DNA from: Eledone cirrhosa
Lineage: Eukaryota
Reading direction: 5' to 3'
DNA: 64,000 nucleotides
Assembly (NCBI GenBank): GCA_964016885.1
Contig: OZ024744.1
Location: forward strand, 112,158,001-112,222,000
Under the pieces are notes generated by a model. That model was not told the origin of the DNA, ran no database searches, and was given only the letters and a program-made list of their open reading frames with translations. Position numbers and translations under genes: made by a program. Position 1 is the first letter of the stretch; every line of letters begins with the position of its first letter. Below are positions 24,342 through 42,298 of this stretch, one piece after another.

Positions 24342-24773
24342 TGTAGGAGGTGAGTTTTATTGTAGTACAATAAAGCAATGCAGATATCGGATAAGAAGCA
24401 CTCTACAGTTTGTGGGACTGGAGTATGCATAATATAAGATCAAAAGATGGTTAAAGGAGTTCAATATATTTTATTATGCGCATTTCAAAAACAAACATCA
24501 TCAAACAATAATATTTGTGTTTTCATCAGATAAAACAGGAGAACATGATATGAAGGCTAAAAAAACACTTGTTGATAGTGCAGTTTTAAATCAACATATC
24601 AGATATGTTGATTTAAAACTGCACTATCAACAAGTGTTTTTTTAGCCTTCACATCATGTTCTCCTGTTTTATCTGATGAAAACACAAATATTATTGTTTG
24701 ATGATGTTTGTTTTTGAAATGCGCATAATAAAATATATTGAACTCCTTTAACCATCTTTTGATCTTATATTAT
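24342..24773 (-). mobile_element. palindromic hammerhead element family E
   Basis: 172-bp arms 24429-24600 and 24602-24773; extension 24342-24428; homolog at 41870-42298. Confidence 0.85.
24665..24735 (+). ncRNA. type I hammerhead ribozyme motif (mirror at 24467-24537, minus strand)
   Basis: tgttttat-CTGATGA-long stem II-GAAA-tgcgca-TA-ataaaata; palindromic stem III. Confidence 0.82.
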
Positions 24774-24928
24774 ATATATATATATATATATATATATATA
24801 TTTATATATATATAAGTATTGAAGTTTCCGTTGAAAATTGAAAAAGTCATAGGAGGAAGATTCAACCCCAGTACCGTGTGTAGATATCTATGTATATATA
24901 TATGTGTGCGTATATATATATATATATA

Positions 24929-25350
24929 TATTAATAAGAGGAATTCCAACTTTGTCTGATTTACTCGTTTTATTTACAATCCTTTAAAATATATATAATA
25001 TGGTATTATAATGAAATAGTATGATAGAATATTAAATTCTAAGTGTTAATTGAACAAGTACTTTCATGCTTTCGCAATCTTCAGGTTCATGATATGTGGT
25101 GACAGTCGAGTTTGCAATTTTCGAACAGTTGAAAATTGCAAACTCGACTGTCACCACATATCATGAACCTGAAGATTGCGAAAGCATGAAAGTACTTGTT
25201 CAATTAACACTTAGAATTTAATATTCTATCATACTATTTCATTATAATACCATATTATATATATTTTAAAGGATTGTAAATCAGACTAAGTTGGAATTTC
25301 TCTTATTAATATAATCTTCTATACACAATCATACACACCCATGTATTTTT
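24929..25350 (+). mobile_element. palindromic hammerhead element family F
   Basis: About 190-bp arms around a centre near 25126; flanked by (TA)n. Confidence 0.8.
25164..25202 (+). ncRNA. minimal type I hammerhead motif (mirror at 25051-25089, minus strand)
   Basis: tgaac-CTGAAGA-ttgc(gaaa)gcat-GAAA-gtac-TT-gttca. Confidence 0.78.
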
Positions 25351-25436
25351 ACCTATCTATATCTATATATATATATATATATATATATATGTATGTATAT
25401 AGATATATATTTGTATGTGTATATATATATAAATAT

Positions 25437-26310
25437 ATCCTAGGTGACCGAATTAGCAGCGGAGGTGGGTGTTCAGAAAGTACAATAACTAGGGTAAGTA
25501 CGGGATGGAAGAAGTTCAGGGAACTACTGCCACTGCTAGCTACAAAAGGCTTCTCCCTCAGAATGAAAGGCAGACTGTCTGATGCGTGTATCCGAACAGC
25601 AATGTTACAGGGTAGTGAGACCTGGGCGCTGAAGGTGGAAGACTTGCGTAGATTAGAGAGAAACGAAGCCTGCATGCTCCGATGGATGTGTAATAGTAAT
25701 ATACGCGACCAACAAAGCATAAATGAATTGAGAGAGAGACTGAGCATCAGAGGAATCAAATGCTGTGTGCAGGAGAGGCGGTTGCGCTGGTATGGACATA
25801 TGATGTGTATGAAGGATGACAGCTGCATAAAAAGGAGCAGAGCACTAGAAGTCAATGGAACCCGAGGAGTGAGGAGACCCAAGATGACCTGGGATGAGGT
25901 GATAAAAGCCGACTTTACCCAATTACATCTCTCAAAGGCAATGACACATGACCGTGACCTCTGGCGTCACGCAGTAATACAGAGTACCAGACCTCCCATG
26001 AAGCATATAGACAATATTCCCCCACCCCACCCACCGCAAGGTGGTTGTGGAGGTGTCACAACAAAAAAGCACCCAGCCCACACTGTAAAGTGGACGTGTA
26101 GGGGCCATGAAAAAGCACCCAGCACTCACTGTAAATGAGGTTGGTGTTAGGAAGGGCATCCAGCTGTAGAAATCAAGCCAAAATCAGTTCCTGTATGAGC
26201 AAGGCATAGTCAGCCGACCAGACACTGCCCACAACAGGCCAACTCGTCTAACCCATGCTAGCGTGGAAGGACGGACGTAAAACGGTGATGATGATGATGA
26301 TTATGATGAT
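25437..26310 (+). pseudogene. RTE LINE 3' fragment with 3' UTR and (ATG)n tail
   Basis: LGDRISSGGGCSE...[11 protein letters not shown]...GSETW...RRLRWYGH...RPKMTW. Confidence 0.9.
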
Positions 26311-26395
26311 ATATATATATATTTGTATGTGTATATATATATATATATATAGATATATATTTGTATGTATATATATATATATATATATATATATA

Positions 26396-38775: not shown

Positions 38776-39827
38776 AGAGAGAGGTAAAAGAGAGAATGGG
38801 AACGAAGAGGAAGTGAAAATGACAAAGGGGAGGAAAAGAGAATGAGAGAAGGGGAGACAGGGAGGGAGTATAAGAGTGAGAGGGAGGGTGTGTGTGTATA
38901 AAAAAAGGTAGAGACATAATGAGAGAAATAAAGAAGATACACTAGAGTAGGAGGGGGGGGTAATGAAGTGGACAGTGAGGAGGGAGAGAGAGGCGGACTG
39001 AGAGAGGGGAACAGAGAGAGAGAGAGAGAGAGAGAGAGAGAGAGAGAGAGAGAGAGAGAGATGCAAATGAGTTAACTGGTAAAAAGAAAAGAAGAAATAA
39101 GTAAATAAAGAAAGTAGATGTAAAGTAGACAGGTGTGTCTTTCTGCCACACCTGATTATTAATTGCTATACAAGAGGAGGTATAGTTAGTGCAGTACACA
39201 CACTCCTACACACACACACACACACACATATATGTACACACACAGACACACATATATGTGAGTATATATATATATATATACATACATATATATATATATA
39301 CGTACATGCATATATACATACATATATATATATATATATATACATACATATATATAACACATACATACATATATATATACATACACATATATATATACAT
39401 ACTTATACATATATACATATACATACATATACATACATATACATACATATATATATATACATACATACATATATATATACATACATATACATACATATAT
39501 ATACATACATATATATATATATACATACTTATGCATACATATATATATATACATATATATACATACATATATACATACATACATATACATACATATATAT
39601 ATATAACACATACATACATATACATACATATACATACATATATATATATATACATACATATATATATATACATACATATGCATACATATATATATACATA
39701 TATATATATATATATATATATATATATATATACATATATATATATATATACATATGCATACATATATATATACATACATACATTTATATTTATATACATA
39801 CATACATATATATATATATATACACAT

Positions 39828-41332
39828 AATCATCATCATCATCATCATCATCTTCGTTTAACGTCCATCTTCCACGCTAGCATGGGTTAGACGGGAGTTG
39901 TCCCACTTGAGATAAGGTTGGTCGGGTGACCGTGTCTCGCTCATATAGGACTATCTGGCAGGTTTTCTACGGCTGGATGCCCTTCCTAACACCAACCACA
40001 TTTACAGTGTGGAACTGGGAACTTTTTACTGTGTTACCTACACGGCCACATTACAGCGTGGACTGTGTGTTTATTTTTTTTTCCTGAGACCTACACGAAC
40101 TCGATCTGATTTTCTCGTGTTGTTGGTGGGAGTGGGAGGATAGGGTAGGGTAGGGGTACTAGATTGGGGTGTATATTTGGTTAAGAGGTGCCTACTGACT
40201 GTAGGTTTCGTTTTCTACATAGGCAAGGCGGGTCTTCTGTATTACTGCGTAGCGCCAAAGATCTCGGTCCAGAGACATTGTTTTAGAGAGGTGTAAGTGT
40301 GTGAGGTCGGAATTTATCAGATCGTCCCAGGTTTTTCTGGGTCTACCTACTCCGTCTACCAACTGGGTCTACCAACTGGGTTTACCTACCATCAATTTTG
40401 ATCGCCCTGCACTTTTTTATGCAGCTCTCGTCTTTCATGCACATCACGTGACCATACCAACGTAGTCTTCTCTCAAGTAAACTGCATCTGATCCCTCTTA
40501 TTCCTAATTTCTCATTTAGTTCATTTATGCTTTGCCGTTCACGTATATTACTATTACACATCCAGCGGAGCATGCATGCTTCGTTCCTTTCCAGTCTACG
40601 CAGGTCCTCTGCACGTAATGCCCATGTCTCACTGCCATGTAGTATTGATGTTCGTATACAGGCATCATACAGTCTGCCTTTCATTTTTAGAGAGAAACCT
40701 TTTATGGCCAACAGCAGTATCAGCTCTCTGAACTTTTTCCATCCCGTTCTGACTCTAGCTACCGTACTTTCAGAACACCCACCACCACTGCTGATTTCGT
40801 CACCCAGGTAATGGAAAATGTCTACTATTTCTATAGAACCATCTGGGCAATAGAAGGGGCTAGTATCCTGTGGACACCTGCTACTTATTGCACCTGAGCA
40901 TTGGCCACATATAAAGTCTATGTTCTTAGATAGTTTACCTGTGATCCCACTACATCTTTTATGTACCCATAGTTTGTATTTCTACCTACTCCTTTCTTAC
41001 ACACTGAGCATGACCAATTCCCAGAGGGCACCTGTGCCCTATTTTCCTTTCTACAAACTAGAACTTTAGTCTTAGACAAGTTAACTTTAAGGCCTTTTGA
41101 TTCTAGGCCATGCTTCCATGTTTGGAATTTCTTCTCTAGTTCAGCCATTGATTCAGCTATGAGCATTAGATCATCTGTGTATAGGAGTTCCCATGGGCAG
41201 CCGGTCTTGAACTCCTCTGTTATAGCCTGAAGGGCAATAATAAATAAGAGGGGGCTAAGGAAAGAGCCTTGATGAACGCCAACATTTACATTAAATTTTT
41301 CACAATATTCATTGTTAATTCTAACCTTACTG
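39828..41332 (-). pseudogene. RTE LINE 3' half, degraded, with 3' UTR
   Basis: [36 protein letters not shown]; (CAT)n tail at 39828-39852. Confidence 0.9.
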
Positions 41333-41617
41333 ATACATATATATATATATATATATATGTACATACATATATATATATATATATAATTATACATACATAT
41401 ATATATACATACATACATACACACACATATACATACATATATATATACATATATATATATATATATACGTACATATACATACACACACATATACATATAT
41501 ATATATATATATATATACATGTACATACATATACATACATATATATATACATACGTACATATACATACACACATATATATATACATATATATATACATAT
41601 ACATACACACATATATA

Positions 41618-41838
41618 AAGGAACGATCGACTTTCGTCAAATCGGACCGAGGGAACAATGTTTCCGTTGGTCTTTCCAACTGCTAATACTATCTATCGGT
41701 CGCAACTCCAGGTAGAAGGAGCAACGTGAAATAAAGTGTCTTGCTCAAGGACATAACGCATCGCCTGGTCCAGGAATCGAACTCACAACCTTACGATTGC
41801 GAATACAATTCTCTAACCACTCAGCCACACGCCTTCAC
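41618..41838 (-). mobile_element. tRNA-derived SINE related to family 2
   Basis: Minus strand gtggctgagtggttag A-box, gagttcgattcc B-box, tccttgagcaagacactttatttcacg core. Confidence 0.8.
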
Positions 41839-41869
41839 AATATATATATATATATAGATATAGATATAT

Positions 41870-42298
41870 ATATAAGATCGAAAGATGGTTAAAAGAGTTC
41901 CATGTATTTTATTATGCGCATTTCAAAAACAAATATCATCATGCAATAACATTTGTGTTTTCATCAGATAAAATAGGAAGACATGATATGAAGGTTAAAA
42001 AACACTCGTGGATAGTGCAGTTTTAAATCAACATATCTTGATATGTTGATTTAAAACTGCACTATCCACAAGTGTTTTTTAACCTTCATATCATGTCTTC
42101 CTATTTTATCTGATGAAAACACAAATGTTATTGCATGATGATATTTGTTTTTGAAATGCGCATAATAAAATGCATGGAACTCTTTTAACCATCTTTTGAT
42201 CTTATATATTATGTATACTCCAGTCCTACAAACTGTAGAGTGCTTCTTATCCGATATCTGCATTGCTTTATTGTACTACAATAAAACTCACCTCCTAC
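41870..42298 (+). mobile_element. palindromic hammerhead element family E, copy 2
   Basis: Arms around centre 42038-42039; hammerheads at 42102-42172 (+) and 41905-41975 (-); 3' extension 42210-42298. Confidence 0.85.
42102..42172 (+). ncRNA. type I hammerhead motif
   Basis: tattttat-CTGATGA-stem II-GAAA-tgcgca-TA-ataaaatg. Confidence 0.82.

Follow-up and report, generated by a model that had tools for sequence, protein, structure and literature searches.

Penelope-like elements (PLEs) characteristically insert with an adjacent inverted, 5'-truncated copy of themselves and with a tail at one end, and are biased towards (TA)n targets (PMC8557442; PMC8969392). The terminal repeats of metazoan PLEs contain minimal hammerhead ribozymes with a palindromic helix III, and pairs of hammerheads on opposite strands, 100-700 bp apart, have been noted in these elements (PMC4209133); in rotifers, the Penelope-like terminal repeats (pLTRs) start with palindromes, of 18 bp in Pen2 and 38 bp in Pen3a (PMC3846280). 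How the inverted ends of PLEs are formed was stated to be unresolved both in 2013 and in 2021 (PMC3846280; PMC8557442). Here we analyzed two palindromes, copies A and B, in a 64,000-nt stretch of the Eledone cirrhosa genome (assembly GCA_964016885.1, contig OZ024744.1, positions 112,158,001 to 112,222,000 of the forward strand; hereafter the window). These palindromes are very probably stubs of a PLE end, that is, of a pLTR, and their mirror half does not seem to have been passed on whole but to have been made anew, insertion by insertion, at a fixed hairpin in the RNA.

Copy A (24342-24773) carries the element on the minus strand, and consists of an 87-nt tail (24342-24428, minus), a single-copy 3' extension in which a short stem-loop is followed by an AC-rich end; a tailed, long arm that represents the pLTR body (24429-24600, minus); a 1-nt axis spacer (24601; A on the plus strand, T in the element sense); and a tailless, inverted short arm (24602-24773, plus) that runs into (TA)n, with the (TA)n target found on both sides of the unit (24289-24341 and 24774-24815). 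In copy B (41868-42299), the tailless inverted short arm (41868-42037, minus) likewise runs into (TA)n and is separated by a 2-nt spacer, TT (42038-42039), from the tailed long arm (42040-42209, plus) and its 90-nt tail (42210-42299, plus), the unit being surrounded by a (TA)n-rich target (41841-41867, plus a TA/TACA array from 42300). The tailless arms stop in a TA-rich stretch that, in copy B, lies where the tailed arm meets the base of the tail (42205-42217, plus). The arms pair along 172 nt with a single mismatch in copy A and along 170 nt with three mismatches in copy B, and as whole units the two copies are 91.9% identical over 432 nt. The position of the axis agrees between them to within 1 nt, an agreement that would arise by chance in ~1-2% of cases if 5' ends were uniform along the 170-260 nt unit. 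A reading of this DNA from its sequence only had reported the common turning point, the short arms ending in (TA)n and the shared 3' tail, all of which we recovered, the turning point also as a family-wide boundary in reads; the structure was as described, but the extents required correction, with the short arm of copy B starting at 41868 and its tail measuring 90 nt.

A third fragment of the family, a tailless arm (45845-45947, minus), has the same tailless end as copies A and B, does not reach the axis, being 5'-truncated ~55 nt inside it, and is joined to other sequence. The outer ends of copies A and B all enter (TA)n, and the target is (TA)n or AT-rich in 3/3 of the window copies; because both ends of A and of B sit in (TA)n, a target site duplication is unreadable there. 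The immediate flanks of A and B are unrelated, as the sequence-only reading had required for two independent loci, and such matches as occur within 3 kb of flank belong to dispersed repeats, no closer than 660 nt to one or both units and with differing offsets. The two copies therefore do not represent a segmental duplication. More generally, the window is AT-rich animal DNA, dense in microsatellites and in debris of long interspersed nuclear elements (LINEs), and it may resemble the repeat landscape of cephalopods.

Each of the four arms, as well as the third fragment, contains a minimal type I hammerhead with a palindromic helix III. These are found in the tailed (24467-24537, minus; core start 24529) and tailless (24665-24735, plus; core start 24673) arms of copy A, and in the tailless (41905-41975, minus; core start 41967) and tailed (42102-42172, plus; core start 42110) arms of copy B, with a predicted cut after 42164 in the latter. 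The motif combines helix I, of 8 bp, and the CUGAUGA core with a long helix II, GAAA, a self-complementary helix III of 8 nt and UA as the cut triplet. In an alignment of the five arms of this family with four from a related family of the window, 94.4% of 124 cells were paired and 3/16 pairs were changed on both sides, with pairing falling to 38-62% when partners were slid; the structure was drawn from the very sequences scored, which favours it. For the hammerhead call we rely on the motif and these pair counts, since folding the hammerhead and tail regions by minimum free energy gave no significant result (z −0.8 to −1.4); no match across the window reached the Rfam gathering threshold. The predicted ribozymes resemble those of metazoan PLEs in being of type I, with a tiny palindromic helix III, a long helix II and opposite-strand pairs, and differ from them in having A-U rather than G-C as pair 10.1-11.1 and in the length of helix II, ~15 bp (PMC4209133).

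The minimal hammerhead with its palindromic helix III, together with the one-sided tail and the inverted arm, is the basis for assigning the palindromes to a PLE terminal repeat, and the features of PLEs that we found comprise a terminal-repeat hammerhead, an adjacent head-to-head inverted 5'-truncated copy, a one-ended tail and a (TA)n target. Described PLE insertions with inverted pLTRs share with copies A and B the head-to-head 5'-truncated copy, the one-ended tail, the palindrome at the pLTR 5' end and the occurrence of solo pLTRs, whereas here there is no open reading frame (ORF) between the repeats, and the natural palindrome is a G.U hairpin that forms in the sense RNA only; (TA)n targeting is as in the Neptune, Hydra and Naiad clades (PMC3846280; PMC8557442). 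Non-LTR retrozymes (Li et al., bioRxiv 10.64898/2026.07.22.740005) are likewise non-coding hammerhead units related to PLE pLTRs, but they are monomers or direct tandem repeats, in contrast to the tailed inverted doublets of the present family, and we rejected this class since direct tandem hammerhead monomers were not found. Exact-pattern scans of metagenome contigs and of prokaryote genomes gave no match. The doublet architecture is thus already known for PLEs, and what may be new is the clue that the hairpin gives to its formation; the sequence-only reading saw the fixed turning point but recognized neither the hammerheads nor the known PLE pattern of inverted pLTR and one-sided tail.

Differences between the arms and between the copies bear on whether the palindrome is inherited or rebuilt. 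Compared with the 1 and 3 mismatches within copies, the A and B arms show 13 differences that are common to both arms of a copy and only 4 that are private to one, a comparison that the sequence-only reading had called for. Of the 13 shared differences, ten recur among the family variants listed from several contigs of public data; the private base of copy B at 42172 is missing from nearly all other public records. Because shared differences outnumber private ones in this manner and the variants recur family-wide, A and B are from different source lineages, and the arms of each copy are from one template type at insertion. Independent inheritance of the two arms is excluded, unless conversion erased every difference. 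The proposal that the palindrome is an inherited architecture is disfavoured by these counts, as well as by the many read junctions, described below, in which the axis is reached by one arm only. The same plan recurs in a second window family (10526-10740 and 47735-47945), with 63-nt arms, an 80-nt tail, the same ends and axes that agree to within a few nt; scans for the motif detected no hammerhead there. Within copies, the arms of this second family differ at 2 and 11 columns, as against 15-19 columns between copies, and they lend weaker support to rebuilding.

To place the axis in the family as a whole, a probe (42005-42299) was compared with 4 of 24 listed public runs, and matched 5444 contigs in X1, 5081 reads in X23 and 33 contigs in X4; the Hi-C run X18 had no matches and provides no test. 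X1 may be the window's own sample, and X23 is a reduced-representation (restriction-site-associated DNA, RAD) run whose counts reflect few loci; summed contig depths were not taken as copy numbers, and none of the 24 runs is an RNA run, such that they have no bearing on expression. The reads show a high-copy family in which the commonest listed 5' boundary is the axis of A and B: RAD depth in X23 steps from ~4 (42025-34) to ~610 (42045-54), and the largest listed group of 5' loose ends lies at 42041 (341 reads in X23, 29 contigs in X1 and 2 in X4). At the other end, tailless ends occur at 42207, 42209 and 42217, and loose (TA)n ends are also seen. Raw reads over the exact perfect centre are scarce (X23 depth 1-3 at 42015-42034). 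A long-read fold-back artefact is disfavoured by the arm mismatches, the one-sided tail and the same-axis junctions in short reads.

Fifteen of the 29 joints were listed, and in 15/15 of these one side lies at 42033-42041, at the axis or its mirror. The other side is spread over 42102-42269, with four joints wholly inside the tail, and the tailed arm therefore lacks sequence that is present in the other arm. In many read junctions only one arm reaches the axis, and 8/11 of the records with inserted letters also involve it. The centres themselves vary: besides T and TT, four contigs have a 3-nt deletion, one record has a 39-letter insert, and a long-spacer form also occurs. The joint 42040/42205 (79 reads, 2 starts) consists of two abutting, non-overlapping inverted pieces that meet near the base of the tail; this joint and 42041/42269 fit inverted non-overlapping pieces of one RNA, which A and B, with their full overlap, do not. 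The axis is therefore a strong hot spot and not an invariant point: a concentration of fold-back positions, as anticipated from the two copies, is seen on one side of the listed joints, but the other side is scattered and inner 5' ends exist.

The loose ends before 42041 yielded a 30-letter consensus (341 reads, agreement 0.75 in X23; echoed in X1 and X4). Because this consensus opens with the mirror of the arm's first five letters, we read the segment as spacer sequence in a lopsided palindrome, one of whose arms extends upstream by a further 25 nt, and we infer that the parent naturally has this sequence upstream. When reverse-complemented, the segment pairs with 42041-42060 (plus), at the start of the tailed arm of copy B, in 20/20 positions (13 Watson-Crick and 7 G.U), making this stretch the presumed 3' strand of a natural G.U hairpin. 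The duplex has an energy of −19.3 kcal/mol in the sense RNA, as compared with −6.5 in the antisense RNA and −6.3 in complementary DNA (cDNA). Only 4/5000 shuffles scored as well, as did 21/21,322 of the window 36-mers, 9 of them being family arm starts and 12 lying in one unrelated tandem array. The symmetry centre of the hairpin is at 42040, no more than 2 nt from every centre type seen, and the axis thus appears to be the loop of a natural hairpin. All seven changes are in the wobble-tolerant direction, which suggests selection on the hairpin in the sense RNA.

These observations led us to a model that we regard as about evenly balanced between right and wrong, in which two cDNAs, each primed by one strand of the target, stop at the hairpin and have their ends joined. 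Each palindrome would be one insertion of the 3' pLTR of a hammerhead-bearing PLE, in the form of two head-to-head cDNAs. The element protein would nick both strands of a (TA)n target; one nick would prime reverse transcription at the end of the tail, and the other would prime ~90 nt upstream, in a UA-rich stretch able to pair with the target. Both cDNAs would tend to stop at the loop of the 20-bp G.U hairpin near the RNA 5' end, and their 3' ends would presumably be joined end to end with 0-2 extra letters. Where both cDNAs reach the stop a near-perfect palindrome would result, and where one ends early or passes the hairpin the product would be lopsided. Two-strand priming would thereby explain the head-to-head order, the one-sided tail, the 0-2 nt spacers, which are too short for a foldable loop, the long-spacer form and the joints deficient in the tailed arm. 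The model borrows two-strand nicking and extension, and the two start sites of reverse transcription, from literature on another PLE, and for the remainder builds on the anatomy, hammerheads, arm concordance, boundary, lopsided joints and segment pairing of the present family. Specifically, the PLE protein of the anole (PAc, Poseidon from Anolis) nicks the two strands of its target, extends both, and initiates reverse transcription at two sites bounding the tail (Frangieh et al. 2024, PMC11167929). More tentatively, and with some doubt, we propose that programmed two-strand priming makes the inverted pLTRs of PLEs, with the two starts of reverse transcription setting the tailed and tailless ends and the sense-only G.U hairpin, perhaps opened or cut in its loop, setting the common stop.

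Several points weigh against this model. Reverse transcriptase normally stalls at the base of a hairpin rather than in its loop; stopping at the loop is unusual, and may call for a cut or a start site at that point. Lopsided joints could equally come from a finished palindrome that was later deleted on one side. The upstream segment is a loose-end consensus (0.75 in the RAD reads, perhaps from few loci, and 0.55 in X1), and its placement as a spacer is deduced from its first five letters and not from a seen joint. Inner 5' loose ends are found at 42137 (153 reads) and 42145 (149 reads), in addition to the third fragment; 14/29 joints and 160 loose ends lie beyond those listed, symmetric inner folds are perhaps under-reported, and the letters between the two sides are not known for 12/13 contig joints. 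The start sites of PAc are non-homologous to its target, whereas the inner site here is homologous (PMC11167929). The tail, at 87-90 nt, exceeds the 30-40 nt given in descriptions of PLE insertions. Finally, no intact parent was seen, and no ORF lies beside any copy in the window.

The closest rival, which we consider possible although unlikely, is that one first-strand cDNA, or an antisense RNA (Arkhipova et al. 2013), folds back at the hairpin, copies itself as far as the UA-rich stretch and anneals to the target, lopsided copies being later deletions. Such a process would account for the near-identical arms (1 and 3 mismatches) and for the coincidence of the axis with a natural inverted repeat. 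Palindromic inverted junctions have been interpreted in this way in the literature (PMC3846280), and two window palindromes (4806-5039 and 23638-23964) do have an imperfect hairpin in their spacer. It is weakened by the fact that the hairpin barely forms where folding would have to take place (−6.3 kcal/mol in cDNA, −6.5 in antisense RNA), and that loops of 0-2 nt are too small to fold without several untemplated letters. Moreover, A and B retain no letters of the wobble arm past one base, the long-spacer form resumes at 42041 without microhomology, and, if lopsided copies were later deletions, each of the 15 listed joints would need to have kept one arm intact to within 4 nt. The sequence-only reading had proposed, as one of two options, a programmed self-priming or template-switch site; our analysis supports a programmed site, though one that appears to be a common stopping point, at a hairpin of the sense RNA, and not a point of self-priming.

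That the whole palindrome is a non-autonomous unit copied in one piece, with gene conversion from arm to arm keeping its arms alike, we judge improbable. It would explain the same axis and ends in copies 8% apart; X1 contigs do span a B-type centre (summed depth 74,739 at 42038, which is not a copy number), and the junction with the long spacer is seen again in runs labelled as two organisms. However, conversion of all 13 differences would be required, the centres vary as listed above, only one arm is kept in lopsided joints, and a 170-bp RNA duplex would presumably be a poor template for reverse transcriptase. Less probable still is a group of other explanations, namely a DNA transposon with a TA target, either a miniature inverted-repeat transposable element (MITE) or a foldback element; a fold-back artefact of the assembly; or a segmental duplication. 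Long inverted repeats with TA flanks are what a DNA transposon would leave, but the inverted repeats here are not at both termini, as a conserved tail of 87-90 nt lies beyond one arm; the conserved hammerheads, unrelated flanks, arm mismatches and same-axis short-read junctions also stand against these explanations.

Copies A and B are found among ~10 palindromic doublets of several families in the window. In a chimeric doublet at 45845-46200, the tailless arm of the present family faces a different hammerhead-like sequence (with U for C3) across a central (TA)n, both halves carrying a common 40-nt leader; it could be one event that used two RNAs. A hammerhead doublet at 23638-24055 has a 55-nt spacer, and its tailed arm begins exactly at the base of the spacer hairpin, which pairs further, with G.U, on the minus strand. 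In a related doublet (4806-5039) the spacer is an imperfect hairpin and both arms stop at the TA-rich hammerhead helix III, and a further hammerhead doublet (24927-25330), with 150 nt of perfectly matching arm and a spacer of 8 nt, carries an indel of 13 nt in one of its arms. Inverted hammerhead-bearing repeats of 215 nt, 97.7% identical and with a 285-nt spacer, are present at 26499-27212. One family is arranged head-to-head at 23101-23404 and tail-to-tail around (TA)n at 43038-43471, each ~1 kb past the tail of a copy of the A/B family.

Coding remnants are also present in the window. Broken ORF pieces at 61216-62030 (minus) and 49185-49562 (plus) are PLE-like by eye and include a thumb-like stretch. 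They contain a YIGET motif resembling that of GIY-YIG endonucleases. These two remnants (three translated pieces) had no Pfam match, and were not linked to the A/B family. A long LINE-like ORF run at 28653-31890, interrupted by stops, has an endonuclease-like N-terminal part, a reverse transcriptase (PF00078) and a PHD finger (PF00628). In the tail of both copies, an ATG-started frame of 30 codons is open throughout (42211-42300), and both differences between A and B in it alter the residue. A word-indexed search with this frame returned no candidate, and its one phmmer match, to a tandem-repeat protein over 6 summed stretches, was rejected as spurious.

The family is high-copy, short and non-coding; its axis is sharp, its two outer ends are fixed and its hairpin forms on a single strand, and these properties together make twin priming directly separable from self-priming. 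If the model of two-strand priming is true, the strand asymmetry of the hairpin would count against self-priming by antisense RNA as proposed in the literature. The chimera at 45845-46200 would then demonstrate that RNAs of different families can serve the two primings. The doublets are also to be flagged as a source of 170-bp double-stranded RNA and as prone to misannotation as MITEs. We found no paper that applies twin priming to the inverted ends of PLEs and none on a sense-only G.U hairpin at the axis, in a search that left subscription papers and early Penelope reviews largely outside, such that a prior description is possible.

Two described systems come closest to the mechanism proposed here. 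PAc resembles it in that both strands are cut and extended, in its two tail-bounding starts of reverse transcription, in its AT-rich target and in having an AC-rich stem-loop where synthesis begins. The two start sites of PAc lie next to each other, whereas those proposed here are ~90 nt apart with the inner one TA-rich, and the main text on PAc does not treat the inverted junction (PMC11167929). In the twin or dual priming of L1, synthesis from the second target strand begins at an internal site, either of the same RNA or of another one, and an inverted 5' piece results; the joint 42040/42205 has the same geometry (Meyer et al. 2010, PMC2837659). The L1 products described there are non-overlapping, carry poly(A) and have no fixed stop, whereas in the present family the arms mostly overlap in full and share one common stop (PMC2837659).

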